A stretch of 64,000 bases of DNA from Planctomycetota bacterium (lineage in GTDB: Bacteria; Planctomycetota; Planctomycetia; Pirellulales; Lacipirellulaceae), in contig JAADGV010000108.1 of assembly GCA_013152205.1 (NCBI GenBank), forward strand, positions 7,127-71,126. Direction: 5' to 3'. Positions 10,167 to 56,589 of the stretch are shown in pieces; position 1 is the stretch's first letter; every line of letters starts with the position of its first letter. The notes beneath the pieces were generated by a model, which made no database searches, was not told where the DNA came from, and saw only the letters and a list, made by a program, of their open reading frames with translations. The position numbers were made by a program, and so were the translations under genes.

Positions 10167-10234
10167 TTTGACAGGATTTACAAGATTGACAAGACGGGTA
10201 TAAAAAACCGCTAATGAGCACTGATAAACGCTAA
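10167..10234 (+). repeat. Orphan left arms of tandem-unit IR elements
   Basis: tttgacaggatttacaagattgacaagac, then aaccgctaatgagcactgataaacgctaa, which resembles the 18723 arm. Confidence 0.55.
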
Positions 10235-10447
10235 GAGCTGGACTTTTGCATTTCAAGGTCAATTGTCTCGTCAGTTTAGCTGGCGAGTGCTAGATAGGTG
10301 CGTTCGCCTAGAGGAAGTGGCCGTTTTGGGAACTGAACGACTGATATTTATTTCTCCCGATGCTTTGACACACTTTTCAGTAAGACGATATACTGCGGTT
10401 ACAGTAATCCTTTGTGCCGAAACTTCATTCGAGGTAACCCTCCAGAG

Positions 10448-11191
10448 ATGAATCCTTATAGTTCGCTTGCCGACGATTTTTACGTCAATATGAATCTCAG
10501 CACTGAGATGGAGCTTCCTAGTACCCGCGAAACCGTGTTGCACTTCTTCGAGCAAATGCAAAAGCAGCACCCCGAGATGCGGAATTTTTATTCTCGCGAT
10601 AAGCGAGATTTTGTACTCGAAGAAGATAAAGATCAGGGCAACTACCGATGGTGCAACGTCGAACCCAAGCGGGTCTGTTCGGGCTTCGTCAACCCCGAGA
10701 CGGTCGAAACTGCCATTGAACAGCATCGACACGCCTTAGAAATCGCCCCCTACGCACTCTCGATCAGCGCCCTCGACTGCGAAGCGCTCGACCTACTGTT
10801 TGGTTTTGATTTCTCTTATCGAGGCAACCACAACCAACTGATTGCCGAAGCCCTTGGGGTTTGCCCTGCTCTTGATCGCCTTTCCAACTACCCGGGCACA
10901 ACCATCATCAGCAACGAGCCGAACATCACCTTCGCCCTCGACGAAGATTGTCGCCTGCAATGTCGGCTAAATATTGAATCGCGTACCAACGCCTATCAAA
11001 TTCGCACCGGCGAATACCAAGAAGAGCAGCTCAGCGTCTACGTCACCGCCCGCCAATACGGCAGCTTGGCCACAGGCCAAACCTACGTCGAAACCCTCGA
11101 CCGCCTCCACGAAGTCTCCCGAGAAATCATCGACAACTACGTTATCGAAGCCATTCTGGAGCCGCTGGCTAGGACGATTGCGTTGAAGTGA
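10448..11191 (+). CDS. Conserved hypothetical cytoplasmic protein
   Basis: 247-aa ORF with normal composition; start set to ATG 10448 (MNPYSS). Confidence 0.8.
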   Translation: MNPYSSLADDFYVNMNLSTEMELPSTRETVLHFFEQMQKQHPEMRNFYSRDKRDFVLEEDKDQGNYRWCNVEPKRVCSGFVNPETVETAIEQHRHALEIAPYALSISALDCEALDLLFGFDFSYRGNHNQLIAEALGVCPALDRLSNYPGTTIISNEPNITFALDEDCRLQCRLNIESRTNAYQIRTGEYQEEQLSVYVTARQYGSLATGQTYVETLDRLHEVSREIIDNYVIEAILEPLARTIALK

Positions 11192-11224
11192 GAGTCTCTC
11201 CGAAACCTAGCGCGGCAAGTAATA

Positions 11225-11244
11225 TTTGACAGGATAAACCAGAT
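11225..11244 (+). repeat. Orphan TTTGACAGGAT-type arm
   Basis: tttgacaggat is shared with 10167 in direct orientation. Confidence 0.45.
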
Positions 11245-11511
11245 GAGAGACATCCGGTCGATCACAAAAATTGATTGAAAGAACGCTAGTCTTCGCTAAT
11301 TAGATTCGCTTAGATTAACGAAGATTTGTATTCCAACTCAAACTGAAAAAAAAGGAGCCAGCGAATATACGCGAAAATGGCTCGTTTATCAGAATAGTTG
11401 ACTTTCGACTTGCGGAAAGTTTGAGAAGGTGGGTTCATCGATCATCATTGGCGTGATTCGCGGGCCTTATCGTGCCTGCGTTTTCACTTTGAACTACGAG
11501 CTAAATAGGGC

Positions 11512-11608
11512 TCTCGCAGAGACGGCAGAGCTATGAAATTCCAGTTTTCTCCGCTGTCTCTGCGTCTCTGCGAGACAATTCCTTTTCTTTGCGCCTTAGC
11601 GCCTTTGC
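11512..11608. repeat. Tandem-unit IR element (TCTCGCAGAG type) plus outer right arm
   Basis: Arms at 11512-11530 and 11549-11575; ctttgcgccttagcgcctttgc at 11587-11608; homologous to the reverse complement of 20221-20292. Confidence 0.8.
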
Positions 11609-11770
11609 TATCGTATTAGTTCGTAGGTTCAAAAAGTCTTTATCAAAATGCTGTTATGGGGTATGCTGCCAACTGAGGGGGGCGACTCCCTGTCCGTGCG
11701 CGGGTGCCCATGCAACCCGCAGCTTGGCAATTTCTTCTTTCTTATTCTCGCTCGAACCTGGAGGTATCTC

Positions 11771-12049
11771 ATGTTTTGCCGTTGGATGGTTATCGGTTTG
11801 TTGGGTATTAGCGCTCTTCTGTTCGCTCTCACGTTCGAGACATCGACGGCTGAAGCTCGGCGAGGTTGCCGGGGTCGCCGCGTCTCCAGAAGTCGTGCCT
11901 ACTACGCCCCGTCGTCGTATTACCGCCCAAGAGTCTCTGTAGGCGTCGGATTCTACGGTGGTTTCGGACCTGGATTCTATGGCGGGGGCGGGCATGGATT
12001 TCACGGTGGACATGGTGGACATGGTGGACATGGTGGACACGGGCACTAA
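11771..12049 (+). CDS. Small secreted Arg/Tyr/Gly-rich protein with (GGH)n tail
   Basis: GGAGGT RBS, signal peptide ending AEA, and 9-bp ggtggacat tandem repeats. Confidence 0.75.
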   Translation: MFCRWMVIGLLGISALLFALTFETSTAEARRGCRGRRVSRSRAYYAPSSYYRPRVSVGVGFYGGFGPGFYGGGGHGFHGGHGGHGGHGGHGH

Positions 12050-12054
12050 GCCAG

Positions 12055-12150
12055 GTAGGGTCCGCTGTGCGGACCGAATTCATTCGCTCCACCGAGACGG
12101 TGGGACTATATAGCCCGACCCTCTGGGTCGGAGTGGCGGAACACACAGCA
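12055..12150 (+). repeat. REP-like cluster (GTAG palindrome plus two 3-nt-loop hairpins)
   Basis: GTAG-GGTCCGC-tgt-GCGGACC; ccaccg-aga-cggtgg; ccgaccc-tct-gggtcgg. Inverted copy at 50495-50558. Confidence 0.85.
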
Positions 12151-12198
12151 GTGAAATGCAGGACGATTGTAAAGTCACTGTGGGAGGGTGTTCTCGCC

Positions 12199-12226
12199 TT
12201 GACTTATGGCCGTAGGCGGTTATACT
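12199..12226 (+). promoter_or_regulatory. Sigma70-like promoter, probably leaderless
   Basis: TTGACT-N16-TATACT; ATG 12233 follows 6 nt after the -10 box with no SD. Confidence 0.6.
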
Positions 12227-12232
12227 TTTGGT

Positions 12233-12469
12233 ATGAAAACTGCTGTCTCCATTCCGGATGAAGTCTTTGAGGAAGCGGAGCGTCTTGCGAGTCGATTACA
12301 GACTTCGCGTAGCCAGCTCTATGCGAAGGCTTTGGCCGAGTTCGTTGCTCGACACGACGACGATCGTATCACGGCGGCGATGGATCAGGTGGTTGAAGAG
12401 GTTGGAAACGAAGTCGATGACTTCACTCGCGAGGCTGCCCGTCAAACGTTGCAGCAAGTGGAATGGTAA
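12233..12469 (+). CDS. Antitoxin, ribbon-helix-helix (CopG-like)
   Basis: MKTAVSIPDEVFEEAERLA...SRSQLYAKAL; overlaps the toxin start. Confidence 0.85.
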   Translation: MKTAVSIPDEVFEEAERLASRLQTSRSQLYAKALAEFVARHDDDRITAAMDQVVEEVGNEVDDFTREAARQTLQQVEW

Positions 12470-12807
12470 TCGCCCAGGGCGAAGTCTGGTGGGTCGATTT
12501 CGGTGAGCCGATTGGTTCGGCTCCCGGTTTCAGACGACCCGTTGTTGTGGTGCAGTCGGATGCGTTGAATCGAAGTCGGATCGGAACGGTCGTTTGCGTT
12601 CCCCTGACAAGCAATCTCAAATGGGCCGACGCTCCTGGCAACGTCTTGCTGAAAGGCAAGCAGACCGGGCTGCCCAAGGATTCTGTCGCCAATGTTTCGC
12701 TGATCGTTGCTTTAGACAAGAACCAACTCAGCGAGCGCAGTGGTAAGCTATCGAAGCGGAAAATCGAGGCAATTCTCAGCGGAATCGATGTCGTCCTCGG
12801 TCGCTAA
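12463..12807 (+). CDS. mazF: PemK/MazF family endoribonuclease toxin
   Basis: QGEVWWVDF, RRPVVVVQSDALN, VPLTS, LPKDSVANVS. Confidence 0.92.
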   Translation: MVIAQGEVWWVDFGEPIGSAPGFRRPVVVVQSDALNRSRIGTVVCVPLTSNLKWADAPGNVLLKGKQTGLPKDSVANVSLIVALDKNQLSERSGKLSKRKIEAILSGIDVVLGR

Positions 12808-12817
12808 TGGCGGCTAC

Positions 12818-13204
12818 TCACTCGCCGATCAGCCGCTTTACGCTTTGGATGAGTCGATCCATCGGAAACGGCTTGCGGACATAGTCGTCGACGCCCAGCA
12901 TTTCGGCGTACGACTTATGGCGGGCTCCTTCGTTGGCAGTGATCATGATGATGCGCTGCTTCTTTTCGCCCATCCTCTTCAGACGCTCGAGCACCAAAAA
13001 ACCGCTCCGCTTGGGCATCATCATATCCAGAATCACCAGATCTGGGGCTTCGCGCTCGATCAAAGCCAAGCCCTGATTGCCATCGCGGGCGACCAGAACT
13101 TCGTACCCGTGGGCTTCCAATGCCAGCCGAAGCGACTCGATGATCTCGGCATCGTCGTCGACTAACAGAATCCGTTTGCTACTGTTTTCTTCAGTTTTCG
13201 CCAT
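12818..13204 (-). CDS. Single-domain response regulator
   Basis: LLVDDD, LVILDMMMP phosphoacceptor, MITA, KP. Confidence 0.93.
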   Translation of the reverse strand: MAKTEENSSKRILLVDDDAEIIESLRLALEAHGYEVLVARDGNQGLALIEREAPDLVILDMMMPKRSGFLVLERLKRMGEKKQRIIMITANEGARHKSYAEMLGVDDYVRKPFPMDRLIQSVKRLIGE

Positions 13205-13332
13205 GATTATTGGTGCTACTGCAATAGGTGGGATAGCTGGGTCCGAACGACAACAGCTGGCGGGATTTAGTTATTTTTCTTGCGAGCGACTGCCAAAACT
13301 TCACTGCTGAGAGCCTGAAAGAGCCTAAAGCA

Positions 13333-13367
13333 TGGCAAATCGCTAGCCTCACATTAGCGATTTGCCA
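13333..13367. promoter_or_regulatory. Perfect 13-bp inverted repeat with 9-nt spacer
   Basis: tggcaaatcgcta-N9-tagcgatttgcca, in the divergent intergenic region. Confidence 0.5.
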
Positions 13368-13550
13368 CAGATTTGCAAGCCAATGGATTTTGCACGCCGG
13401 TCGGAGACTGGCCCAGGCGGCATTCTCACCCCGCTATTGCCCGGTGACAAACGCCCGCCCGACTTGCTACGCTAACCACACCGAATGACAGTAGTTCCAA
13501 GTTTGGCGTTTTGCTCGGCGATTCGAGTGTTTTGGGATCGTGACGTTTGG

Positions 13551-13614
13551 AGCTATTAGCGATTAGCCTTTCGTCCGATAAAGCGTGACCTACCAAAGCT
13601 AACAGCTAATAGCT
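13551..13614. repeat. 7-nt tandem-unit IR element
   Basis: agctattagcgattagc and gctaacagctaatagct (15/17). Confidence 0.7.
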
Positions 13615-13727
13615 AACCGCCTGCTTCCACTTGCAAAGACCTGAGTTTTTTCGAGAAAAACAGCGAACTTGGAATTACCGACTTAGGGTATCCCTCTCCA
13701 TTTTTTCGTTATCAATACGCAGCCATT

Positions 13728-14834
13728 ATGCCCCAAAAAACCACACCCTCGTCGATTACTTTTCCTGAGTTGCCGTACTTACCGCGCGACCCAAAAAAAT
13801 ATCGCCCAAAAATTGGCCTGATTGGTTGTGGAGAGATCACCGACTACCATCTACAAGCCTATCAAGCAGCTGGCTACGACGTTGCTGCCTTCTGCGATCC
13901 GAAAATCGAGAATGCAAAAAAACGACGCGATAAATTCTACCCTGAAGCCAAGGTTTTCACCGACCGCAACGACCTACTAAAGCTCGACGACATCGAAGTT
14001 GTCGACGTGGCCACACACCCCGAGGTTCGCTCGCCCATTACCGAAGACGCCCTTCGCGCCGGCAAGCATGTCCTCAGCCAAAAACCGTTCGTGTTGGATC
14101 TTGACGAGGGCCATCGGCTCGCCGATCTAGCCGACAAGCAGGGCGTTCTGCTCGCAATTAACCAAAATGGCCGCTGGGCACCTCACTTTAGCTACATACG
14201 CGAAGCAGTTCGAGCCGGCCTGATTGGCGAAGTTCTCGGCGTCCATTGCGGGGTCCACTGGGACCATAGTTGGACCCGTGGCACCGAATTCGAAAAAGTC
14301 TACCACTTGATTCTCTACGACTTCGCCATCCACTGGTTCGATTTTCTATCGACCATCATGCACGACCAGCGTGCCCAGCGGGTCTACGCTTCGGCCACCC
14401 AAGCGACGGCACAAGACATGATGCCGCCGTTGGTTGCCCAAGCAGTTGTGGAATATCCCCATGCGCAAGCGTCACTAGTTTTCGACGCCTATGTACCTCA
14501 AGGTAGCTGGGACCATGTACTGGTTAGCGGCAGCCGGGGCATCGTCCGTAGCTCAGGCGTTGATTTGGACAATCAACGCGTAGAGATCATTACGAACGAA
14601 GGCACGATCGTACCAAAGGTTGAAGGGACTTGGTTCCCCGATGGCTTTCACGGCACGATGGGCGAGCTTCTCTGTGCGATCGAAGAAAAACGCCAACCCA
14701 CGAATAGCGCGCACAACAACCTGCGCAGCTTAGAACTTTGTTTCGCAGCGCTCGAAAGTTCGCTCAGCCACCAACCGGTCGAGCCTGGCACGGTTCGGAA
14801 AATTCCAGAGCCTATTGCGACTGTGCAAGGTTGA
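13728..14834 (+). CDS. Gfo/Idh/MocA family oxidoreductase
   Basis: IGLIGCG, HVLSQKP, NQNGRWAP, DFAIHWFD. Confidence 0.93.
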   Translation: MPQKTTPSSITFPELPYLPRDPKKYRPKIGLIGCGEITDYHLQAYQAAGYDVAAFCDPKIENAKKRRDKFYPEAKVFTDRNDLLKLDDIEVVDVATHPEVRSPITEDALRAGKHVLSQKPFVLDLDEGHRLADLADKQGVLLAINQNGRWAPHFSYIREAVRAGLIGEVLGVHCGVHWDHSWTRGTEFEKVYHLILYDFAIHWFDFLSTIMHDQRAQRVYASATQATAQDMMPPLVAQAVVEYPHAQASLVFDAYVPQGSWDHVLVSGSRGIVRSSGVDLDNQRVEIITNEGTIVPKVEGTWFPDGFHGTMGELLCAIEEKRQPTNSAHNNLRSLELCFAALESSLSHQPVEPGTVRKIPEPIATVQG

Positions 14835-14888
14835 GCTACGAAGACACAACGAACAGAAGGCCATCCAGCAAAAGTGGGGGATGTTTTT

Positions 14889-14962
14889 GGGTGGCACAGA
14901 CACGGGTCCGGAAAAAGGTTTTTGGCGAGAGACCGGTTGGCGGACCCGTGTCGGTGTTACCC
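14889..14962. repeat. GGGTGGCAC-type inverted repeat
   Basis: 22-bp arms at 14889-14910 and 14941-14962 with a 12-bp perfect core (gacacgggtccg); termini resemble the 4929 element. Confidence 0.7.
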
Positions 14963-15002
14963 TCGTGAGCGAAGGACTTTAGGCCGTAGCTCACGAAACT
15001 TT

Positions 15003-15034
15003 CAAACCCACCTGCTTCAGTGGGGTGGTAGTTG
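15003..15034. mobile_element. Possible orphan IS200/IS605-type end hairpin
   Basis: Reverse strand reads tcaactaccaccccactgaagcaggtgggtttg, resembling the GTCAACTACC-stem-TGAAG-stem ends I recall; the stem is degenerate and no transposase is nearby. Confidence 0.35.
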
Positions 15035-15090
15035 AGTCCCTCATGGGAACTGCAAAGTCACAAATTCACAAAATAAACCGCAACAATTTG

Positions 15091-15166
15091 AACCACAGAG
15101 GACACGGAGGGCACAGAGAAAATCTATTTTTAAGGTACTCTGTGCTACTCCGCGTCCTCTGTGGTT
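15091..15166. repeat. Tandem-unit IR element (AACCACAGAG type)
   Basis: Arms at 15091-15118 and 15138-15166 with an AT-rich spacer. Confidence 0.85.
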
Positions 15167-18400: not shown

Positions 18401-18679
18401 GCCAATCACCGATTGGCGGAGGGGCTAAGCGTTAAAGAGGCAGTTGTCGACGCGGCCAAAGTCCGTGCGAGACCGATCCTAATGACATCGCTCACCACTT
18501 GGCTGGCACTCTTGCCAATGGCGATTGGCAGCTTTGGCGGCGAGGCGAATGCGCCGCTCGCACGGGCGATCATTGGTGGGGTGATTGCCGCAACGGTTTT
18601 ATCGCTTATTGTCGTGCCATGCTTGTATGTCATCTTCAAGCGGCCACCCAAGGAGCAAAAACAATGGGCGACCACATAA
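15452..18679 (+). CDS. RND efflux permease (AcrB/CusA superfamily)
   Basis: 1075 aa, 12-TM duplicated architecture; NAMTLGGLALAIGILVDQSIVVLEN; RARPILMT. Confidence 0.95.
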   Translation: MTRAVLKNPYLVIVLALAILVLGIYTYPKIPKDLLPIFETSAVQIVTFYPGMPPEIMEKDIMSRMQRWTGQSVGIEHQEAKAMTGVCIVKDFFREGISLDTAMAQTTSYAMSDMFYLPPGTIPPMLMPIDPTASLPLCLVVVDSPGMDEQQLYDIAYYELRNKLQSIQGVISPAVFGGKLRRIYAYMDPRKLEAYGLTLMDVQHQLSKYNVLIPAGNMKVGQKDFQLFTNAVPETIEDLNDSIVKTVDGVPVKISDIGRVENSSQIQSNIVRINGGRKAYIPIYRQPGANSIEIVQTIQKNLANILARLKNERAGDVGMDELVLSVAMDQSGPVQESIAGLQFAAGLGGLLAGVVVFVFLRSITSTLIVMIVIPLSVLAAIVGMYFTGNTVNAMTLGGLALAIGILVDQSIVVLENIMRHVQMGKNPPQAALDGTQEVVVPIFISTVTFAVVFFPTVFLSGLASYLFTPLALATIIAIVVSFVLSITLVPAYCAAFLKVNPNADTQAAAAHGPLTNAFGKLVAGCLEIRWLIALGAAGLFAGAAYLATQMGQELIPPIDSGQFTVYVRMPSGANIDMTDYQIQNIEQAIIEETGEPDPSFALGVEKNVDSDLQILISNIGVLNDWPAAYTPNIGPGDAFMLVQLKGKSGRPGAFDYVEQLREKLNRRFPDVEFAFDTGGMLTSALNMGEPSPIHFQVSGAKLEEMREIAEHVEDAANSVAGTVDVRIAQRLDYPTMTITMNRDKAARMGLTPEEVMQNLVSATNSSVGFDPAFWVDKSKGNHYFIGVQYPEELLTNMETIRNIPVGMVNGVPIRLRNIATIDRAEGPGVINHRNITRVIDIYANVARGYDAGSIMTAIESRLLADGNPLGATRDHDDRGEVYRLSNYPGTALRSQGEVKEMRKSFEQFTAGFAIAAVLVYLVMVAQFRSFVDPFVILLTVPLGFIGVVAVLMLTGSNLSIMSAMGIIMMVGIVVEYSIVLVDFANHRLAEGLSVKEAVVDAAKVRARPILMTSLTTWLALLPMAIGSFGGEANAPLARAIIGGVIAATVLSLIVVPCLYVIFKRPPKEQKQWATT

Positions 18680-18722
18680 ACTTGCCTGGAAATCAATGCC
18701 GACAGAATTACAGAAAAGATGG

Positions 18723-18803
18723 AACCGCTAATGAACGCTAATAATCGCTAATCTTAACTCTGTACTTCACATAATTAGCGAGTATTAGTGTTCATTAGCG
18801 GTT
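18723..18803. repeat. Tandem-unit IR element (AACCGCTAAT type)
   Basis: 30-bp arms at 18723-18752 and 18774-18803 (28/30); three 10-nt CGCTAAT units per arm. Confidence 0.9.
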
Positions 18804-18889
18804 TCCTTTTCCTGTTTGCAGCCCAAGCCGCGATGGGTTCATCAGTGGCTAATTTTTCTACTAAATTTGGTGATGAACCCTCAAAGGGT

Positions 18890-20167
18890 ATGAAAATGAA
18901 CCGACAAAAAAATTTCCTGCACCATACTGGCCTGCTGATGGCCATCGTGATGGCATTTGCCAGCGGTTGCCAGAAATCCGCGCCCTCGCCAGAAAAAAAC
19001 GATGCGGCCATTAAGAAAGAAACGGCCAAGGTGCTGGTCGGGATTGTCCGTGAGAAGAAAATGCAACAGGTCATTGATCTGCCGGCAACGATTGAAAGCG
19101 ACGAGACCGCGTTGCTGATGGCTCGGGTCGAAGCCTATGTGGACGAGGTGTTGGTTGATATTGGCGACGAGGTGGAAGAGGGGCAGGTTTTAATTCAGCT
19201 CGAGGCGCCAGAACTCTTACACCAAGCAGCGGAACAGCGAGCGATGATCCGCCAACTATTGGCTGACGAAAAAGTGTTGCAAGCCGAGGCCGCGGCAGCA
19301 CGTACGCATCTCGACGTGGTGCGGGCAAAATTAAGACTACGAAATTCGGAGCGCGATCGGATTGCACGTTTGGTCAGCACGGGCGCTATCGAGCGTCAAC
19401 GCCTAGAAGAAGCCGAGTCCTCAGCACAATCGGTCACAGCAACGTTGGCGAAGTATACAAACGCAGTTCAAGTGGCTGAGGCGAAGCTGATAAAAAGTAA
19501 ATCTGAAGTGGAGGTCGTCGAGAGCAGACTACAAGCGGCGGAAGCTATGGTGGGATACCTAAGTATCCGAGCGCCGTTTGCTGGCGTTGTCGCTAAACGC
19601 AAGGTCGATCCCGGCAATTTGGTTCGTCCCACGAATCAAGGGAGTGGCCCGTTGTTGGTGATCGAAAAGATCGACAAGCTGCAAGCCATCGTACATGCCA
19701 CAACCGATGTGGCCGGTCAGTTGACCGTTGGTGTCCCCGTGACATTTGTGTCTGACGACTCACCAGATAATCCCATCCGAGCCAAGCTCTCGCGGACTGC
19801 CGGCGCGTACGACGAAAAAACCCGCATGATGCGAGCTGAAATTGATATCGACAATTCGCCCGACCCCGAGACAAACCGTAGACCGCTGCGGTCGGGCAGT
19901 TACGGTTCGGCGCTAATCGTACTACGCGAGGAGACCTTACCCGTTGTGCCCGAGTCGGCATTGCTGCATCGCAGTGGAGAAACTTTGGTGGTCGTCATCC
20001 GCAACGAGACGTGCCAATTGACGCCGGTCGAGATTGCGATCGAAAGCGACGGGTTAGTAGGAATTCGTTCGGGCGTTACCAACGGCGATCAGGTGGTTTT
20101 CGAGAAACCAGGAGCCATCCAGCCCGGCCAAACTCTCACCCGAAGCCAAATGGAGTTAGTACCCTAA
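18890..20167 (+). CDS. RND periplasmic adaptor (MFP), lipoprotein
   Basis: Lipobox ASGC; IRAPFAGVV...VDPGNLV; RMMRAEIDIDN. Start trimmed to exclude the repeat-derived extension. Confidence 0.93.
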   Translation: MKMNRQKNFLHHTGLLMAIVMAFASGCQKSAPSPEKNDAAIKKETAKVLVGIVREKKMQQVIDLPATIESDETALLMARVEAYVDEVLVDIGDEVEEGQVLIQLEAPELLHQAAEQRAMIRQLLADEKVLQAEAAAARTHLDVVRAKLRLRNSERDRIARLVSTGAIERQRLEEAESSAQSVTATLAKYTNAVQVAEAKLIKSKSEVEVVESRLQAAEAMVGYLSIRAPFAGVVAKRKVDPGNLVRPTNQGSGPLLVIEKIDKLQAIVHATTDVAGQLTVGVPVTFVSDDSPDNPIRAKLSRTAGAYDEKTRMMRAEIDIDNSPDPETNRRPLRSGSYGSALIVLREETLPVVPESALLHRSGETLVVVIRNETCQLTPVEIAIESDGLVGIRSGVTNGDQVVFEKPGAIQPGQTLTRSQMELVP

Positions 20168-20196
20168 ATCGGCACCCCCCCTGGCCGGACCACCCA

Positions 20197-20415
20197 GCCA
20201 CAACCAAATAGGTAGGAATTTCTCGCAAAGGCGCTAAGTCGCAAAGGAAACAAGAAAAAGGATTGTCTCGCAGAGGCGCAGAGACAGCAGAGAAAATCGG
20301 AATGTTGTAACTCTGCCGTCTCAGCGTCTCTGCGAGATCCAATTGCCATACGGAGCTGCGTGTGAGGGGCTTCAAAGTATCGATTCGTTTTTTGCGCCTT
20401 AGCGCCTTTGCGAGA
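20197..20415. repeat. Nested composite IR element
   Basis: Outer arms 20221-20245 and 20391-20415 (24/25); inner arms 20266-20292 and 20311-20337 (24/27); gccacaaccaaa leader. Confidence 0.9.
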
Positions 20416-20551
20416 GTCTAAATTTTCAGGTCCGATCATACAAAACCTTTTCTTGTCACATAAATTTGAATCGTTAGTAACACAAAGTAAACCAATTACC
20501 AAATCTCGCAGTCGCGTTTCACAAGTTTGTCCGATCAAGGAAGATCGAAGC

Positions 20552-28864: not shown

Positions 28865-29315
28865 AAACAAAAGCAACGCCACGATCCGAACCCACCGCTA
28901 TTCAACAACCATGCTCCCTACCTACTTGCTTATTAGCGATCATTCGCGAAATTCGCGGGCAAAAAAAGAGGGGGGATAGACGACGTAAGCAAAACTCACC
29001 CCGGCCAAATTTTATAGTGGAATCGAAACCCCATTTCCACGATAATACCGGCTACACCCGCTCTAAGCACCGATCATTACCAAATCGTAAATCAACAATC
29101 AAACATCAAACATTTCACATCAAAAATGACAAAACTACTCCCTTCCGCACTACGATTTCAGCATTCCAAGCTCAGTTTTGTCCGCCTCAATGGGGCTCCC
29201 CAGCGATTCGTGCCAAAACTCACCCGCCGTACACTAGAATTACAGCACTTTGCAACATAGTTTGGTCCACTTTGTGCCATCCCGCCTGCCGAAACCCTAC
29301 TTGAGGTCGCTATCG

Positions 29316-30026: not shown

Positions 30027-30110
30027 ACGGGCAGCAGTCGTTAGCGGTGGCGGCCACGCCATCCCAAACGGAAAACGCCCCCTATCATTCCTCAAAGTGA
30101 AAAGAAAATA

Positions 30111-30224: not shown

Positions 30225-30242
30225 GAAATTTCTTTCTTGTTT

Positions 30243-37243: not shown

Positions 37244-37258
37244 CTGAAGTCCTTCGCT

Positions 37259-37278
37259 CTCAGTGTTCTCCGTGGTGA
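37259..37278. repeat. Orphan right arm of ACCACGGAG-type element
   Basis: ctcagtgttctccgtggtga. Confidence 0.6.
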
Positions 37279-37329
37279 ATCCCTCCCCCAGCGCAATAAT
37301 TGCCTCTCAAATATGAAAGCGACAACTAG

Positions 37330-39522
37330 ATGAGGAACGATACGGTTATGCAGATACGAAATCTTTTTTTACCCGGCACCACTTGGCTAGTCTGGTTGTT
37401 ACTACTCGCTCCCACAAACACACAGGCCGAGGTGCCTCATGTGGAAATCGGCCAGTTTCCGCAAGAGGTAGCAACCAGCTTTACCTCTACAGACGGTTTG
37501 CCCTCGGACGAGGTGGTTTCAATTCAGCTCGACTCGAAGGGAGACGTTTGGGCCGAAACCAAGAAAGGTTGGGCCGTTTTTCAGGATAAGAAGTGGACTC
37601 CAGCAAATTCCCCACCAACACGGCGGGAGCAAGGCTCGTCTTCGAGGTTGGCCGGAATCAAGGGCAAAGTAAACCAAGTCGCCAGATCGCCGAAAGGAGA
37701 AGTCGTCGTCGCGACCGATCAAGGTTTGCTTATCCAAAAACGTGGCCGTTTTGTTCCCCTTGTTGTCGACGACAATCTTGGCCGACGTTGGGGAACGTCC
37801 GACGTACGCGGCGCCGCCTACGACTCGCACGGCCAACTCTGGTTTGCCACGTTGGCCGGGGCCGCCTGTCAAACTTCGGAGGGATGGAAATTCTACACCG
37901 GTAGCGAAGGCCTGCCTTACAACGATTTTACCGTAATCGAACCCGGCCCTGAGGGCGTGGTGTGGTTTGGAACTCATTTGGGCGCGGTGAGATTCGATGG
38001 CAAAGAATGGGCCTATCGACAGGGGCAGAGATGGCTTCCCTCAGACGATATTCGCGATATTGCGGTCGACCAAGCTGGCAATGCTTGGTTTGCCACCGCG
38101 GGGGGAGTCGGCTTGATCAAACGTCGAATGATGACTCTTGCCGAAAAAGCGGAATTCTACGAAGACGAGATGCAACGCTATATCCGACGGACCCCGTATG
38201 GATATGTTTCCGAAGTCGGCTTAGCCGTAGCGGGCGACAAGACGTCGAAAATCCTCAAGCACGCTAGCGACAATGATGGCCTGTGGACCAGCATGTATGG
38301 TGTAGGCGAATGCTTTGCCTATGCAGCGACGGGCAGCGAGAAAGCCAAAGATCGGGCCAAGCAAGTTTTCGAGGCACTGCGGTTTCTTCAAAAAGTTACC
38401 CAAGGCGGCAAGCATAGCCCGCCAAAGGGATATGTGGCTCGTACGATCCGCTCAATCGATTTGCCAGACCCCAACATCGGGCGACTAGAGCGAGACCAAG
38501 AAGCCCGTTTCCGGGAGGATCGGTTGTGGAAAGTGTACGAACCCCGTTGGCCCAAAAGTGCCGATGGCAAGTGGTATTGGAAGAGCGATACCAGTTCAGA
38601 CGAACTCGATGGCCACTACTTTTTCTATCCCGCGTATTACGATTTGGTTGCTGACACCGACGAAGAAAAAGAGCGTGTCCGCGAAGTTGTACGAGATCTG
38701 ACCGACCATCTGATTGAGCATGGCTATAATTTGGTAGATCACGATGGCACTCCGACTCGTTGGGGTTACTATGGCCCTCATTCGCTAAATCACGATCAGT
38801 CTTGGTGGCTAGAACGTGGATTGAAATCGTTGAGCATGCTCTCCTATCTCACGGTAGCAGAACACATAACGGGCGATCCAAAATACGCCGAGCGAATTAA
38901 CGAACTTATTAACGACCACGCATATCTCACCAATGCGATGATCTACAAAATCCACCGCGGTATTGGTTCGGGAAACCAATCGGACGATGAAATGGCCTTC
39001 ATGTCGTTTTACAACTTGATGAAGTACACCAAGAACGAGGATTTACGCAACCGCTTGATGCTGTCGTTTTTCAGTGCTTGGGTTATCGAACAGCCGGAGA
39101 TGAATCCCTTCTTCAACTTTGCCTATGCCGCATTTGGGGAAGGTACAAAATACAGCGACCAATGGGGGACTCACGATCTGTCTCCCTGGGACGGCTGGTT
39201 AGAAGATTCAATGGCCACCCTGAAAGGTTTTCCATTGGATCGACTGAACTGGGCATGCAAAAACAGCCACCGTCTAGATCTCGTGCGATTGCCCCGACAA
39301 CAGAGCGTCGAAGATCTTGTCGACAAGCTAGAAGGGGATGGCGTTGGGCATCGTGTTAACGGAAAAGTCATTCCCGTAGAGAACCGGCATTTTACTCATT
39401 GGAACACCAACCCCTGGCGATTCGATTACGGTGGCAATGGCAACCAGTTAGCCAACGGCACCGTCTATCTGCTGCCCTACTACATGGGCCTCTACCATGG
39501 ATTTATCCAAGAAACCCCATAG
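37330..39522 (+). CDS. Secreted protein with two-component-regulator-propeller repeats and a helical C-terminal domain
   Basis: GLPSDEV, GLPYND and WLPSDDIRDI repeats; C-terminal SSDELDGH; function unknown. Confidence 0.7.
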   Translation: MRNDTVMQIRNLFLPGTTWLVWLLLLAPTNTQAEVPHVEIGQFPQEVATSFTSTDGLPSDEVVSIQLDSKGDVWAETKKGWAVFQDKKWTPANSPPTRREQGSSSRLAGIKGKVNQVARSPKGEVVVATDQGLLIQKRGRFVPLVVDDNLGRRWGTSDVRGAAYDSHGQLWFATLAGAACQTSEGWKFYTGSEGLPYNDFTVIEPGPEGVVWFGTHLGAVRFDGKEWAYRQGQRWLPSDDIRDIAVDQAGNAWFATAGGVGLIKRRMMTLAEKAEFYEDEMQRYIRRTPYGYVSEVGLAVAGDKTSKILKHASDNDGLWTSMYGVGECFAYAATGSEKAKDRAKQVFEALRFLQKVTQGGKHSPPKGYVARTIRSIDLPDPNIGRLERDQEARFREDRLWKVYEPRWPKSADGKWYWKSDTSSDELDGHYFFYPAYYDLVADTDEEKERVREVVRDLTDHLIEHGYNLVDHDGTPTRWGYYGPHSLNHDQSWWLERGLKSLSMLSYLTVAEHITGDPKYAERINELINDHAYLTNAMIYKIHRGIGSGNQSDDEMAFMSFYNLMKYTKNEDLRNRLMLSFFSAWVIEQPEMNPFFNFAYAAFGEGTKYSDQWGTHDLSPWDGWLEDSMATLKGFPLDRLNWACKNSHRLDLVRLPRQQSVEDLVDKLEGDGVGHRVNGKVIPVENRHFTHWNTNPWRFDYGGNGNQLANGTVYLLPYYMGLYHGFIQETP

Positions 39523-39604
39523 AGAACTTGGGCGCTGAGCAGGCTAGAGACCAATGAAAAATCAGAATATACCGCCTTGCAGTAGCTTTCATATTTTAAG
39601 ATTT

Positions 39605-39818
39605 ACCACGGAGGCACAGAGGGCACGGGGTAAACTGAGAGAAAAAATAGCCGCGGATGAAACAAAGATTAAACACGGATATAGGTGACTACTCCTGAGA
39701 GAACTTTACATCCAATAATAAGTTTGGTTATTTTCCTAGCCGAATATCAGTGTTTCATCCGTGTTCAATCAGTGGCTAAAAAATTACGCTTTCCCCGTGT
39801 CCTCTGTGCCTCCGTGGT
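39605..39818. repeat. Nested composite IR element
   Basis: Outer arms 39605-39630 and 39793-39818 (25/26); inner arms 39648-39680 and 39746-39778 built from ~11-nt aaacacggatg units. Confidence 0.9.
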
Positions 39819-39900
39819 TCCTATCATCCGGCGAATACGAAAGTTATTTTTGAGCAACTCCTACATTTATTATTCGCTGCAAAGCGAGAGAATGCTTCCT

Positions 39901-52499: not shown

Positions 52500-52586
52500 T
52501 CACCACGACGGACACAACGTAATTGCGGAAGGATCATTCGGTCTCCAATTGTTTTTTGCTCCGTGTTCTCCGTGCCTCTGTGGTGA
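52500..52586. repeat. Partly decayed ACCACGG-type IR element
   Basis: Right arm ctccgtgttctccgtgcctctgtggtga; left remnant tcaccacgacggacac. Confidence 0.65.
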
Positions 52587-52618
52587 TTAGTCCTGCAACT
52601 ACAGGTAAGGTGCCAAAA

Positions 52619-53467
52619 TTACCCTTGGATAAGGCAATGGTCGAGCATTGCTTCGGGGGTGCAGACGTAGCTGATTAGGAAGGGGCCGAACTCGGCGTAG
52701 CGTGCGCTGGCTTCGTCGAATCGCATGCGATAGACGATGTCTTTGAGATACTCAGGGTTGGCCGCCCAAAGGGTGACGCCCCATTCCCAGTCGTCGAATC
52801 CCAGGCCGACCGAAATGAGTTGGCTGACTTTGCCGGCAAACGCCATCCCGCTGCGAGCATGTTCGCTCATTAGGGCGTTCCGCTCGTCTTTGGTGAGAGT
52901 GAACCAGTTTTCGCCGACCTTGCGTTTCTTGTTCATCGGATAGAAGCAAGTGCTTGGCCATTCTGAAAAATCGGGGGTCAACCGTTGACGGTTCATACTT
53001 ACCAAACGGTTTTCGTAAGACTTTATTTTTGTGGCGTAGGTGGGGCTGTCCTCTTGTTCGCCTTCGGCGATCAATCGCTTGCCAAAGTCTTCGACCGAGG
53101 GAACATACTCGCTAATCTCGGTCATCGAGACAAACGAGTAGCCAGGCACGAGGGCAGGGCCCAAGCCACTTGCCATGAGGCGTTGGTGGACGCTATCGAC
53201 CTTGAGCGGGTTGGGATCCATCAGCATCAGACCAAAATCTGCCTTATGGCCACTGACAACCGAGGTTTGTAGACGCAGGGGGCTGCCTTCGGTGGCAGAA
53301 TCAAGAGCCTCGATCACGCCGGTTCGGCCAGCGGCAATTTGCTCGGTAGACATTTGTGCGAGCGCGGCACGATTCCAGGAATAGTACAGATGGCTGCAAT
53401 GCCAACCGCCCTCGGCGGGGGTGAGCGAGACTTCGGCGGGCGCGGCAGTATGGGCGGGACGATTCAT
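52619..53467 (-). CDS. chdC: Coproheme decarboxylase (HemQ/ChdC, chlorite dismutase superfamily)
   Basis: GWH..H, GHKADF, YPMNKKR, proximal EHARSG, distal Q, DDWEWGVT, SARYAEFGPF. Confidence 0.82.
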   Translation of the reverse strand: MNRPAHTAAPAEVSLTPAEGGWHCSHLYYSWNRAALAQMSTEQIAAGRTGVIEALDSATEGSPLRLQTSVVSGHKADFGLMLMDPNPLKVDSVHQRLMASGLGPALVPGYSFVSMTEISEYVPSVEDFGKRLIAEGEQEDSPTYATKIKSYENRLVSMNRQRLTPDFSEWPSTCFYPMNKKRKVGENWFTLTKDERNALMSEHARSGMAFAGKVSQLISVGLGFDDWEWGVTLWAANPEYLKDIVYRMRFDEASARYAEFGPFLISYVCTPEAMLDHCLIQG

Positions 53468-53567: not shown

Positions 53568-54194
53568 TTACAAATGTTCCTCTTCTACTGCCTTTTGGGC
53601 GTCATTCCATTTCAATAGGAATGCCTTCTGTACGCTTGGGTCGAGCTGATCGGCAAACTCATTGGGAAGTTTTAATGTTTGTATGAGCCGTTGAACGTCG
53701 GTAAGGTCGCCTGATCGATGGGATGCCTGCCCCGAAGCTAGTTTCAATTCGATGATCGGCTTCAGGTCTAAAATGTGAATTCCCTCGGCTTCGACTGCAA
53801 CTTTCGCGGGGTCGGGGAACACAATTGGCCCAGGCTTGCCGTCGCCGGGGTATCCGCCGGCGACGAGGAAGTCGATTCTTACGCCCGTCACCGTGTCGCG
53901 CAGGTTTTTGCTTTTCTCAAACGGCTTGACATATCCGCGGCCCTCTAGCTCCGCGTGAATTTTCGCCAAGCCTTCTGCCGTGACCAGGATATCAACATCC
54001 TCGGTAAATCGCCGATAGCCGTGAAAGAACAGGGCCATGCCGCCGGCAATGGCGTAGTCGATGTTGAGTTCTTCCAGCCGCTCGACAATTCGCCGGAGAG
54101 TTTTGTGAACGGCGCTCTCGCCCTCGAAGTGCATACTTCCCTCTTGTAGGGCCCAATTGAGATCGTTATTCAGAAGTGTTTCGTAGATACTCAT
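53568..54194 (-). CDS. Stand-alone nucleotidyltransferase-fold protein
   Basis: YAIAGGMAL..HG..RFTEDVDILV; LKL...R..DL.DV. Confidence 0.75.
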   Translation of the reverse strand: MSIYETLLNNDLNWALQEGSMHFEGESAVHKTLRRIVERLEELNIDYAIAGGMALFFHGYRRFTEDVDILVTAEGLAKIHAELEGRGYVKPFEKSKNLRDTVTGVRIDFLVAGGYPGDGKPGPIVFPDPAKVAVEAEGIHILDLKPIIELKLASGQASHRSGDLTDVQRLIQTLKLPNEFADQLDPSVQKAFLLKWNDAQKAVEEEHL

Positions 54195-54267
54195 GTTGTT
54201 TGGTGACTATTCTACACTCTGATTCAGATGCGCAGGCTAAAAAAAATCTTGGCTTTTGTGTCGCTGC

Positions 54268-54756
54268 TTAGTTTCCCAAGATTTCCGCTACGGTTGCGTT
54301 GAAATCCTCAGCCAGTCGGCCCAGTACTTCGTGCGTTAGCGTGGCGGGGACTCGTTGTCGGGAAGTGCCGGCCTGCTTTTCGTATCGGCAGAGAGAGACC
54401 GAGCCGCCGCGACGCAATAAGAGTTCGTAGTAGAATCTGCCCGTGTCGTTCTTTTGAGGCGGACTGCTTCGCATTTGGACCACGCATCCATCGGCATCGG
54501 TTTCGATGGGCGAGATTGGCTCTAGTAGGTAGTTTACACGTTGGCACAACGACTGGCTGGCCGATTGGAGTTTCGCGATGTCGACCGACGCCAGTTCGCT
54601 TGTTTCCAGTGCAAGCTGTGTAATGGCAACGGCCAAGGGATCGCATTGCTGGATTTGGCATTTTAGTATGCGCGGCCCGTCGGCAACGACGACCTTGCAG
54701 TTCGTCTGCCCGAGGTTCGCTTGTAGCTCTTGTAGAAAGTCGTTTCGGAGTTTCAT
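54268..54756 (-). CDS. Hypothetical protein translationally coupled to spoVR
   Basis: ATGA overlap with the spoVR stop; 162 aa. Confidence 0.75.
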   Translation of the reverse strand: MKLRNDFLQELQANLGQTNCKVVVADGPRILKCQIQQCDPLAVAITQLALETSELASVDIAKLQSASQSLCQRVNYLLEPISPIETDADGCVVQMRSSPPQKNDTGRFYYELLLRRGGSVSLCRYEKQAGTSRQRVPATLTHEVLGRLAEDFNATVAEILGN

Positions 54757-56297
54757 GCTGCGTCCTCCGAGTCGTCGCCGAGGTCAGTTGGCTCGCCACA
54801 AATCAAGGAGTGTTCCGAACCGTCAAACGAAGCGATGGCCTTGGAGTCTTCTAAGACGGTTTCGATGTGTACTGGCCGATTCCAAAGTCGGTAAAGATTT
54901 TCGAGTGTGTCTTTCGCATTCTCAAGCTGTAGCTCGACGCCGGAGTAGTCGTGCTCGAGGTAAAGCTCGCCGCGGTTTTTGTAATTGCCATCGACCACGG
55001 CGATGATCGGTCGGCCTCGATTGGTTAGGCTTTCGAGCAACTGCTGCTTAACCAGTGGGAATTCGCGGCTTTCGATTTCATAGGCGTCGCTTCCAGGGTT
55101 GTAGCCGAAACGGAAAAAATTGTGTTCTCGTACAAAATCAAGCGTCAAAAATTCGTCGATAAAGGTTAGGTCGTTGTGAATTCGACGTACCTCGAAGATC
55201 TTTTCTCGGCCAAGGCCAGCGCCGGTGTTCCACTTACGTCGTGTTTCGTGGTCGTCGCATTCGTCGTACTCACGCCCAAAAGCGCCTCGATTCCAACGGT
55301 CTTCGATGTTGCGGAATAGCTCGATGCCGACCTTGTAGGGATTGAGTTGGGTCGGCGAACTGGCCATGGTGCCACTGTGATGATCGCAGTAGTTGATCAC
55401 GTCGGCCGAGGTAAGCCCCTGGCGGATCATGATGGTCGAGTGCCAATAGCTGGCCCATCCTTCGTTCATGATCTTGGTTTGGGCCTGAGGGGCAAAGTAA
55501 TAGGCCTCGTCGCGAATGATTGACAGGACATCCGCCTGCCAAGCGTTGAGCGGGGCGTGCTGCAGTAAAAACAGCATGACATCCCGCTCTGGACTCTCGG
55601 GTAATCTTCTCGCAGGCAATTCTTCCTCGCTTGGTTCGTCGTCGGGGTCGATCTGCTTAGGCGGATTGATGAACGGATCGAGGTAGTTTTTGGCTTTGAA
55701 CCGTTGCGGCTCTTTTTTTTGGCTCTCGTCTTCTGGCGGAGTGAAATCGTAGCGATCTTTGGTTTTCTGCCGTTGGATAAAGGGCGAATGGATATCGATC
55801 AGGTCTTCGATGCTAAGGCAGGCGTCGATGAAGTTTTCTACTTCTTCGACGCCAACCTTCTCCATGATACGGCGAATTCGTGTGCCGTGATTTGCCACAT
55901 CGTCCATCATCTTGCGGTTGGTTTTGGCAAACCACTGGTTGTTTTTGAAAAAATCGCAGTGGCCGTAAACATGAGCCATCACGAGCTTCTGGTCGATGAG
56001 TCCATTGCAACGCATCAGGTAGGCATAGCACGGGTCGTTGTTAATGACCATTTCATAGATTTTTTGCAGCCCGTAATTGTACCCTTTGCTGAGTTGTTCG
56101 TACTCCATGCCGAACCGCCAGTGAGGGTAGCGCGTGGGAAATCCACCACGCGCGGCAATGGCGTTCAACTGATCGGCATCGATTAACTCAAAAATCGTCG
56201 GGAAGAAATCAAGACCGTGGCCGCGGGCGTACTCTTCGATCTCTACCTGAATGGCAGCTAATTCTGGTGTCAAGTTTCCTAATTGATCCAAGGCCAT
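54753..56297 (-). CDS. spoVR: SpoVR family protein
   Basis: GFPTRYPHWRFG, KIYEMVINNDP, AHVYGHCDFF, TKIMNEGWASYWH, NPYKVG. Confidence 0.95.
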   Translation of the reverse strand: MALDQLGNLTPELAAIQVEIEEYARGHGLDFFPTIFELIDADQLNAIAARGGFPTRYPHWRFGMEYEQLSKGYNYGLQKIYEMVINNDPCYAYLMRCNGLIDQKLVMAHVYGHCDFFKNNQWFAKTNRKMMDDVANHGTRIRRIMEKVGVEEVENFIDACLSIEDLIDIHSPFIQRQKTKDRYDFTPPEDESQKKEPQRFKAKNYLDPFINPPKQIDPDDEPSEEELPARRLPESPERDVMLFLLQHAPLNAWQADVLSIIRDEAYYFAPQAQTKIMNEGWASYWHSTIMIRQGLTSADVINYCDHHSGTMASSPTQLNPYKVGIELFRNIEDRWNRGAFGREYDECDDHETRRKWNTGAGLGREKIFEVRRIHNDLTFIDEFLTLDFVREHNFFRFGYNPGSDAYEIESREFPLVKQQLLESLTNRGRPIIAVVDGNYKNRGELYLEHDYSGVELQLENAKDTLENLYRLWNRPVHIETVLEDSKAIASFDGSEHSLICGEPTDLGDDSEDAA

Positions 56298-56393
56298 CGT
56301 GCTGTTCTCATTCGAGAGAGATGAAAAAATTCAACTTTTGAAGCATTTCAGCTAAGTGAAGCAAAGTCGTTTTGCAGAGGGAAATACAGAGCC

Positions 56394-56589
56394 TCACGCA
56401 GAGACGCGTAGGAAATTAACTATCAAAAAAACTCTGCTGTCTCAGCGTCTCTGCGTGATACCTTTCACTTGTTTGCTTCAAGTGGCGGAGCCGTTACCAA
56501 TTTCATTATCTCCTATTGGGTGGGCTTGTTTGTGATTTGATCGTATTCTTTGCGCCTTTGCGAGAAAATCCTACCTGTTTGGTTGCGGC
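56394..56589. repeat. Composite IR element inside the prkA-spoVR gene run
   Basis: Inner arms 56394-56407 and 56432-56458 (14-bp perfect core); 56552-56589 is the reverse complement of 20197-20234 (35/38). Confidence 0.85.

Follow-up and report, generated by a model that had tools for sequence, protein, structure and literature searches.

Cargo-less hairpins with tandem-unit arms in a planctomycete chromosome as probable copies of a pan-prokaryotic cassette family

The window analysed here is a 64-kb stretch of planctomycete DNA (contig JAADGV010000108.1, positions 7,127 to 71,126), and all coordinates below are counted from its first letter. It is ordinary chromosome of a member of the Lacipirellulaceae/Bythopirellula group; its RND efflux pump has 80-92% amino-acid identity to pumps of Lacipirellulaceae/Bythopirellula metagenome-assembled genomes (MAGs), and the 47 window proteins scanned with Pfam or NCBIfam are involved in housekeeping or transport, with no transposase, integrase, GxxExxY or four-helix-bundle protein among them. 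There is no tRNA in the 64-kb window and, according to Rfam, no rRNA; at gathering and E-value thresholds Rfam returned only miRNA-like hairpin noise. Scattered between these genes are short inverted repeats whose arms are built of tandem units. We consider them to be probably non-autonomous and cargo-less copies, similar in kind to miniature inverted-repeat transposable elements (MITEs) or REPINs, of a hairpin-cassette family present throughout the prokaryotes, because the same arms enclose GxxExxY or four-helix-bundle genes in many phyla.

The original prediction, made from the sequence alone, had listed at least 11 elements of one design, each located at a gene junction and some of them nested. 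Of the 11 sites listed, nine prove to be hairpins, their arms consisting of two or three tandem units of 7-10 nt, although the one at 52500 is degenerate, and the sites 10167 and 37259 are solo arms. Inverted repeats were recovered where they had been placed (11515-11564, 13551-13614, 15091-15166, 18716-18810, 20266-20337, 30099-30236, 39654-39761 and 56394-56458), with outer arms around the 20266 hairpin at 20221-20245 and 20391-20415 in the inverted-repeat scan and, by folding, at about 39605-39819. Nesting was found at 20197, 39605 and 56345, the three nested composites of the window, and all window elements are intergenic, between ordinary protein-coding core genes. Reading of the sequence also agreed with the units, the termini (ACCAC, ACCGC, TCTCGC, TCACGC) and the AT-rich spacers that had been described. 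The units are CACAGAG, CACGGAG, CGCAGAG, CGCAAAG and CGCTAAG; CGCTAAT and CACGGAT; TTAGCG and GCTAAT, spaced 7-10 nt within the arms; the GxxExxY-type and the four-helix-bundle-type vocabularies introduced below are both present. The units are preceded by AACCAC, AACCGC, TCTCGC or TCACGC. Simple loops, which are AT-rich, measure 18-62 nt, and the flanks are A-rich on the left and T-rich on the right, with T-rich tails at some elements. The arms are purine-rich tandem arrays without self-complementarity, and the elements have the terminal inverted repeats, small size (64-230 bp) and lack of coding capacity of MITEs. The features are listed here, with z-scores of RNA folds calculated against 200 dinucleotide shuffles.

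10206-10238, solo arm AACCGCTAAT-GAG-CACTGAT-AAA-CGCTAAG (predicted as 10167), no inverted partner; fold of 10160-10305, z +0.12
11270-11325, solo arm-like run of CGCTAGT, CGCTAAT and CGCTTAG, absent from the original prediction; z -0.7
11512-11575, hairpin with CGCAGAG-type arms; -32.3 kcal/mol, z -3.9
11587-11608, solo outer arm CTTTGCG/CTTAGCG after the 11512 hairpin
13551-13614, hairpin with TTAGCG/ATTAGC ... GCTAAC/GCTAAT arms (four-helix-bundle-type vocabulary); z -3.8
15091-15166, hairpin AACCACAGAG-GA-CACGGAG-GG-CACAGAG and mirror, upstream of the RND pump gene; -51.2 kcal/mol, z -10.6
18716-18810 (core 18723-18803), hairpin whose arms each contain three CGCTAAT units, located between the genes of the RND permease and of the adaptor; -48.6 kcal/mol, z -11.7
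20197-20419, nested composite between the adaptor and outer-membrane genes; z -9.4
20220-20251 and 20391-20419, outer CGCAAAG/CGCTAAG arms of the 20197 composite
20265-20338, inner CGCAGAG hairpin of the 20197 composite
28932-28957, solo arm ATTAGCG / ATTCGCG / ATTCGCG, absent from the original prediction; no hairpin, z +1.1
30099-30236, hairpin located between convergent genes, its CACGGAG/CACTGAG arms enclosing an AT-rich loop of 62 nt; -54.7 kcal/mol, z -7.5
37259-37282, solo right arm CTCAGTG-TT-CTCCGTGGTGAA, 16 nt past a stop codon; no hairpin, z +1.0
39605-39819, nested composite with outer arms ACCACGGAG/CACAGAG/CACGGGG; -99.3 kcal/mol, z -10.6
39648-39778, inner hairpin of the 39605 composite with CGCGGAT/CACGGAT arms; z -4.05
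52500-52590, degenerate hairpin, one arm intact (CTCCGTG x2, CTCTGTGGTG), the other eroded; z -1.05
56345-56575, composite within the prkA-DUF444-spoVR operon
56394-56458, inner hairpin TCACGCAGAGACGC and mirror of the 56345 composite; z -4.0
about 56348-56368 and 56548-56575, degenerate outer GCTAAG/GCAAAG arms of the 56345 composite

The elements at 11512, 20197 and 56394 are copies of one composite, made of a CGCAAAG-type outer arm and a CGCAGAG inner hairpin; the 11512 and 20197 copies have arms, linker and loop sequence in common, and the 11512 hairpin together with the arm at 11587-11608 is a reversed, partial copy of the 20197 composite. In contigs of hydrothermal-vent metagenomes, further copies of the 20221 outer arms surround plain loops of 21-31 nt, with no inner hairpin. 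Seven hairpins span z -3.8 to -11.7, the 39605 site being scored as a nested composite (39598-39830, -99 kcal/mol, z -10.6; inner hairpin 39648-39782, z -4.05); the composite at 20212-20432 reaches -104 kcal/mol (z -9.4), its 20266 hairpin alone has z -7.9, and the solo arms at 10167, 37259, 28932 and 11270 fold no better than shuffles. Counting arms of at least 16 nt, at least 80% complementary and with a loop of at most 200 nt, the window contains 17 inverted repeats, where 40 dinucleotide shuffles gave 2.2 +/- 1.5, and six of the 17 have periodic arms against 0.17 in the shuffles. The heptamers CACAGAG, CACGGAG, CGCAGAG and ATTAGCG are enriched 6-14x in intergenic DNA.

Most elements lie 7-80 nt from the preceding stop codon (18679 to 18716; 20167 to 20197; 37243 to 37259; 39522 to 39605; 30026 to 30099 and, on the other strand, 30236 to 30243; 52590 to 52619), the 52500 element being located 29 nt past the stop of a chlorite-dismutase-family gene. 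Three are inside conserved operons: in the efflux operon, 18716 separates the RND permease gene from the adaptor gene and 20197 the adaptor gene from the outer-membrane gene, and 56394 lies between DUF444/yeaH and spoVR, downstream of prkA. The longest-open-reading-frame (ORF) starts of the adaptor gene (18788) and of a BNR-repeat gene (39685) fall within hairpin arms; the true starts are therefore downstream, at about 18885 and after 39820, respectively, and the arms thus produce spurious N-terminal extensions.

No GxxExxY (TIGR04256) or four-helix-bundle (TIGR02436) ORF lies between arms anywhere in the window, where the nested composites hold only an inner hairpin between their outer arms, and the window copies are therefore empty relatives and not full members of the cassette family. 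The full form is found elsewhere: a terminus (ACCAC, ACCGC or TC(T/A)CGC), a left arm of two to four tandem units of 7-10 nt, a small gene, and the mirror arm, the gene being that of the GxxExxY PD-(D/E)XK nuclease in CRCNRAG arms and that of an Avd-like four-helix-bundle protein in TTAGC/TCAGC/CTAGC arms. The window form is reduced to arm, AT-rich loop and arm, together with solo arms and nested copies.

The association between arms and cargo was measured by the flank-to-flank inverted repeat around each cargo gene relative to displaced controls, using genes drawn from many phyla and, for GxxExxY, also from archaea. GxxExxY genes lie between tandem-unit inverted arms at 59 of 79 loci, and four-helix-bundle genes at 64 of 80, when the 95th percentile of the displaced controls is taken as the limit; a flank score of at least 16 is reached by 42/79 GxxExxY genes (controls, 1/270) and by 41/80 four-helix-bundle genes (controls, 0/290). 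The expectation that the same arms would enclose both kinds of gene in other genomes was thus borne out. The unit vocabulary is cargo-specific: two or more CRCNRRG units occur in the upstream arm of 45/51 GxxExxY genes versus 0/54 four-helix-bundle genes, and two or more TTAGC/TCAGC-type (YHAGB) units in 1/51 versus 37/54. The original prediction had likened the translated arms to pseudo-peptides that flank these genes in other genomes, and database proteins do carry such peptides (NHRGTE, AEDAEG and SALSAV, among others) as false extensions at the N- or C-terminus.

Starting from the arms, we performed an exact scan, with one genome per species, for ACCACRGAG-N1-2-CACRGAG-N1-2-CACRGAG (ACCACRGAG x3), which gave at least 120 loci versus about 0.5 expected by chance in 596 Gb, according to our own estimate; counts from these genome scans are lower bounds and not frequencies. 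Among the matches listed, the hosts belong to Planctomycetota, Acidobacteriota, Chloroflexota, Proteobacteria, Bacteroidota, Verrucomicrobiota, Cyanobacteria and Spirochaetes, and one match comes from a Methanotrichaceae archaeon; in the same set a mirror arm lies downstream in 103 of 163 arm occurrences, the loop is of at most 150 nt in 81 of these 103 pairs, most hairpins are empty, and only 2-3 of about 160 arms adjoin a GxxExxY gene. Empty copies, then, greatly outnumber filled ones. The arms of locus L083 enclose a 131-aa ORF that is a TIGR04256 GxxExxY protein (E = 4e-45). In the viral contigs of IMG/VR, ACCACRGAG x3 is found in at least 120 loci, often as hairpin pairs, and GxxExxY genes are rare (2 loci). 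A generic search for any ORF enclosed by periodic inverted repeats at long range was dominated by repeats that arise by chance in GC-rich genomes.

Individual window arms have near-identical counterparts beside GxxExxY or four-helix-bundle genes of other phyla. The 15091 arm matches a gammaproteobacterial arm (L205; alignment score 24 for a 28-nt arm), the 20266 arm a verrucomicrobial one (L211; alignment score 24, arms of 27-28 nt), the 56394 arm one from Nostoc (L147, 18/19), the 20221 arm one from Nodularia, and the 13551 arm a four-helix-bundle arm in Emticicia (L231, 18/20).

Other arrangements were encountered among these loci. In L141, a Limisphaerales MAG, the GxxExxY gene (596-961) is not in the loop of a single hairpin: it is flanked by two complete mirror-image hairpins (ACCATGAAG units, each with its own loop), which constitutes a second cassette architecture, and L144 and L175 look similar. 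In L081 (6027-6666, a Thermoanaerobaculales MAG) three arm layers are nested, with CACAGAG outer, CACGAAG middle and CGCAGAT innermost, and enclose about 400 nt without a convincing ORF.

The elements are discrete, multi-copy intergenic insertions that are present, absent or replaced among close relatives, in agreement with the expectation that orthologous junctions would differ in occupancy. The efflux operon (RND, adaptor, outer-membrane protein) is conserved in relatives L001-L012. At the permease-adaptor junction, occupied in the window by the CGCTAAT hairpin, 8 of the 11 relatives with a contig reaching the junction have no hairpin and abutting or closely spaced genes (stop and start overlapping or 5-10 nt apart in 6, short plain spacers in 2); L002 has a different hairpin, ACCACGGAG..., with a loop of about 90 nt, and L006 a hairpin of another kind. 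The adaptor-outer-membrane junction measures 20-75 nt in relatives and ends in a conserved ribosome-binding region; the window has there the nested composite of about 220 bp, and L006 a hairpin of GCTAA units. Closer relatives were compared as contigs of hydrothermal-vent metagenomes: X4 carries the same hairpin as 18716 in the same place, X3 has a different 163 nt replacing it, and X1 matches up to 18726 (the AACC terminus) and then continues with ACAGATGGACACGGATG, that is, with a different arm (AACC-ACAGATGGACACGGATG) sharing the left boundary of the 18716 element. That distinct arms start from an unchanged boundary (18720) points to an exchange of arms or to a site that has been used more than once. 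Some relatives have an additional 7-nt unit at 13550, and others lack 13485-13682 or have different sequence in its place. An apparent 2.2-kb deletion joining 11271 to 13489 was disregarded, as it rests on a 21-nt anchor, and a metagenome scan with the RND pump gave 6 loci whose upstream regions are not syntenic and do not inform on the 15091 junction.

Copy number points in the same direction. Metagenomic depth over the arms, which pools copies from many organisms, is 10 to 3000x that of the flanks, and over the 18716 arms it reaches about 19,000 versus about 6 in the flanks. The arms recur in dozens of contigs, which part from one another precisely where arm meets loop (18752 and 18774) and also at the outer ends 18719-18723, 15086-15092 and 20196-20201; the 15091 hairpin, with its left boundary at 15086-15092, is multi-copy in metagenomes. 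Metagenomic copies have arms in common but not loops. The window has 4.7 unit runs per 10 kb, while sister species, over 230 kb of sequence, have 0.69 per 10 kb. From insertion, absence, replacement, depth and density taken together, it follows that the elements are discrete, multi-copy and polymorphic and, in the regions compared, expanded in this lineage. Depth spikes of 10 to 100-fold were also seen with metagenome contigs at 11835-12201 and 14771-15024, and many contigs diverge at 15020-15024, from which we deduce that additional multi-copy sequences exist beside the tandem-unit hairpins.

It is unlikely that these hairpins are ordinary intrinsic terminators or mRNA-stabilising 3' structures that evolved in place and never moved. 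Most of them do lie 7-80 nt downstream of a stop codon, 30099 is between convergent genes, the stems are strong, and an A-rich left and a T-rich right flank would provide a U-tract in either direction; yet a terminator scan of the window did not call the elements (its terminator-like sites, as well as the sites of a promoter scan, were without clear excess), and the loops of 18-62 nt contrast with the 3-8 nt expected. Moreover, three elements are within conserved operons, and at two of those junctions the genes of relatives abut (permease-adaptor) or are spaced by 20-75 nt (adaptor-outer-membrane), the arms are multi-copy and identical across phyla, the same arms surround genes elsewhere, solo arms and nested copies occur, and the insertion polymorphism argues against an origin in place. 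A terminator side-effect is compatible with the cassette reading. Slippage or template switching during local replication, generating hairpin microsatellites by themselves and with no transfer between sites, would account for the variable number of units, for the 7-nt indel at 13550 and for the Coxiella strains with 2 or 3 heptamers (PMC4990558); it is nevertheless highly improbable, given that copies at different loci have arms, linker and loop in common and that near-identical arms of 19-30 nt recur in distant phyla far above chance.

We also regard as quite unlikely that these are repetitive extragenic palindromic (REP) elements or REPINs mobilised by a REP-associated tyrosine transposase (RAYT) of the IS200/IS605 Y1 type. 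These too are intergenic, high-copy and hairpin-forming, are often at gene 3' ends and expand in one lineage, but an arm of the window family is a purine-rich tandem array and not an imperfect palindrome, so that a single arm cannot fold as a REP does, and the solo arms indeed do not fold; the genes found with the same arms in other phyla are those of GxxExxY and four-helix-bundle proteins and not RAYT genes, and a transposase of any kind is missing from the 47 scanned proteins. Arrays of sites for a host DNA-binding protein, such as a global regulator or a nucleoid protein like IHF/HU, would fit the spacing of about one helical turn, which suits cooperative binding, the existence of solo arms, and the interpretation given to similar paired arrays in Geobacter metallireducens (PMC2700814). 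This proposal is very unlikely in view of the presence, absence and arm replacement at orthologous sites, of the same arms in unrelated phyla and viral contigs, and of a tight association with two specific small genes rather than with regulons. CRISPR and integron attC sites were rejected on architecture.

The reading of the elements as empty mobile copies itself faces several observations that weigh against it. The window and 230 kb of relatives contain no GxxExxY or four-helix-bundle gene; the sequence around 15091, 18716, 30099 and 39605 shows no target-site duplication, in a comparison made without a base-exact empty site; no intermediate of transposition is known; and the four-helix-bundle cargo has no catalytic domain, so that the cargo proteins may be passengers and not mobilisers. 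Position 7-80 nt past stops and A-/T-rich flanks also fit a selected terminator or stabiliser role, the RNA evidence comes from other organisms and from contigs broken at the arms, and different arms at one site could be independent insertions instead of exchange. Concerning RNA, arm sequences are present in metatranscriptome contigs of other organisms, as a filled cassette (L201) and as an empty hairpin (L048); since these contigs end at the arms owing to the repeats, neither termination nor processing can be read from their ends.

Literature naming GxxExxY or PF13366 contained nothing on this hairpin-cassette system, and no paper was found that ties the repeats together or to the cargo genes, in a search from which subscription journals were largely absent; the literature is thin, as the original prediction supposed. 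The family is otherwise almost undescribed, and its only studied relative is the RNase III-excised intervening sequence (IVS) of 23S rRNA. In Coxiella the IVS is 428 nt long, is located in helix 45 of 23S rRNA, has a 28-bp terminal-inverted-repeat stem that includes tandem GACAGAT heptamers (two or three, depending on the strain), holds a four-helix-bundle (S23p, PF05635) ORF, is cut by RNase III within the stem and is regarded as selfish (PMC4990558). The IVSs of Coxiella, Leptospira, Salmonella and others share with the present family the inverted-repeat stem with tandem heptamers and an optional four-helix-bundle ORF, and four-helix-bundle genes in general bear such arms; they differ in being inserted in rRNA helix 25 or 45, whereas the window copies lie between protein-coding genes, use mostly the CRCNRAG vocabulary linked to GxxExxY, have no ORF and are putative RNase III substrates.

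Intergenic tandem repeats of comparable appearance have been reported separately. Geobacter metallireducens has multi-copy intergenic pairs of inverted arrays, each of 4-5 tandem hepta- or octanucleotides, which were read as sites for IHF/HU or a global regulator, and similar sequences were noted in many genomes (Aklujkar 2009, PMC2700814). They resemble the window elements in that inverted pairs loop back on the opposite strand, but their units are GTTGCTYN and MTYCTGA, and no cargo, mobility or cross-phylum link was described (PMC2700814). MacGregor described intergenic TAACTGA direct repeats in Beggiatoaceae and cyanobacteria (PMC4679880). As tandem heptamers common to distant lineages they recall the solo arms of the window, and TAACTGA is the complement of TCAGTTA/TCAGC units in four-helix-bundle arms, such as those of L300; they are, however, nearly always direct repeats just upstream of start codons, without hairpins (PMC4679880).

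Among the known non-autonomous elements, REP/REPIN-RAYT systems are likewise short hairpins of high copy number between genes, frequently at gene 3' ends and within operons, whose non-autonomous copies far outnumber the protein-coding partner and expand in particular lineages; the Y1 transposase recognises a REP unit that is itself an imperfect palindrome, while the arm here repeats units of 7-10 nt in tandem and the linked genes are those of a PD-(D/E)XK nuclease and of a four-helix-bundle protein. Bacterial MITEs (Correia/NEMIS, ERIC, RUP, Nezha) resemble the family in that they measure 60-230 bp, have terminal inverted repeats, insert between genes, are transcribed together with their neighbours and show presence/absence polymorphism, and Correia elements are RNase III substrates. 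In the window family, by contrast, no target-site duplication is seen, the arms consist of repeated units in many variants of one architecture, and the full-length counterpart encodes no recognised transposase. Integron attC sites also conserve structure over sequence and are linked to small gene cassettes, but they are single sites 3' of the gene, with R''-L''/L'-R' boxes, a GTTRRRY core and IntI, whereas the family has mirror arms on both sides of the gene and no GTTRRRY core in the termini, and the window has no integrase.

The proteins enclosed by the arms are the obvious candidates for their recognition. GxxExxY proteins, of about 125 aa, have G25, G27, E30 and Y33 invariant in the alignment, as well as the catalytic triad D70...E80-x-K82, and their structure model, which is confident (pLDDT 92.5), predicts a minimal PD-(D/E)XK nuclease; the nearest solved neighbours found by Foldseek are Cas4 SSO0001 and lambda exonuclease (TM about 0.5), all neighbours being generic PD-(D/E)XK folds with no specific pointer to a junction resolvase, and no solved relative was found by sequence search. 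PADLOC gave only sub-threshold Cas4-like similarity for GxxExxY, no match for the four-helix bundle and no assignment to a defence system. The four-helix-bundle proteins match PF05635/PF22296 and, below its cutoff, the Avd model of diversity-generating retroelements. Cassettes sharing the ends of the window elements thus encode a predicted PD-(D/E)XK nuclease and no recognised transposase.

Arms are conserved across phyla and loops not even between copies in one community, which argues for sequence-specific recognition of the arms. Copying or exchange would take place at the DNA level, probably by proteins acting in trans that read the arm units, and conserved proteins living between such arms could be the recognisers; units about one helical turn apart may place several protomers on one face of the stem. 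Such mobilisation in trans would parallel the MITE/IS and REPIN/RAYT relationships. For the CRCNRAG arms GxxExxY is the prime candidate, even if its being the mobilising enzyme is doubtful at present. Nesting at 20197, 39605 and 56345, together with the plain-loop copies and the Coxiella IVS in helix 45, suggests that hairpin loops are favoured landing sites. A parallel is IS1397, which inserts into REP loops. Co-transcription with neighbouring genes would yield stems of 20-30 bp, and the chances that these are RNase III substrates, by analogy with the 23S rRNA IVS, appear to us evenly balanced. The A-rich and T-rich flanks may cause partial, bidirectional termination, with the stems acting as partial transcript-end or stabiliser structures.

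The window has other features beside these elements. Toxin-antitoxin genes had been named as a further cargo to check for, which was not confirmed: no arms surround the MazEF-like overlapping gene pair at 12206-12807 (87 aa and 114 aa). Its second protein is a PemK/MazF-type toxin (Pfam E = 1e-25), and the pair is therefore probably a type II toxin-antitoxin module; it lies within a stretch of about 1.5 kb (11192-12739) that separates two genes 22 nt apart in L005. A small ORF at about 11772-12049 has a signal-peptide-like start and a Gly/His-rich tail (GGHGGHGGHGGHGH), with a weak match to glycine-rich protein families. Strong hairpins without tandem-unit arms occur at 4929-5008, 14889-14962, 60853-60911, 63207-63244 and 12091-12128, among them one with 30-nt arms at 97% complementarity (GGGTGCCACTGTCTGG...) and the TAGCC(A/C)GACGCGCTAGCGAGGG type, and the heptamers CGGGCTA, GCCCGAC and CGCTAGC are likewise enriched in intergenic DNA; these observations suggest at least one further repeat family in the window. 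In the prkA-yeaH-spoVR block, which is on the minus strand (54000-60000), the AT skew takes strongly negative values (-0.16 to -0.27), far beyond those of the rest of the window.

As a broader and more tentative proposal, possible but short of likely, these elements would be the non-autonomous representatives of a pan-prokaryotic class of mobile cassettes not recognised before, with arms written in tandem 'code words' of 7-10 nt that are read by the cassette's own protein (CRCNRAG by GxxExxY, TTAGC/TCAGC by the four-helix bundle), which spreads via hairpin loops and arm swaps and of which the 23S rRNA IVSs are the rRNA-resident members. In practice, called proteins acquire spurious peptide extensions from the arms, assemblies of metagenomes and metatranscriptomes are interrupted at the arms by the repeats, and copies internal to operons, as in the RND efflux operon and in prkA-yeaH-spoVR, may alter polar expression. 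If the reading is true, matters reported separately until now would be facets of one phenomenon, a hairpin cassette whose arms are coded in their sequence and which is surrounded by numerous empty copies: the GxxExxY and four-helix-bundle genes, two of the most abundant 'hypothetical' small families of bacteria and archaea; the origin of the 23S rRNA intervening sequences, a puzzle of decades' standing; and the intergenic tandem heptamers noted here and there in Geobacter, Beggiatoaceae and Coxiella.

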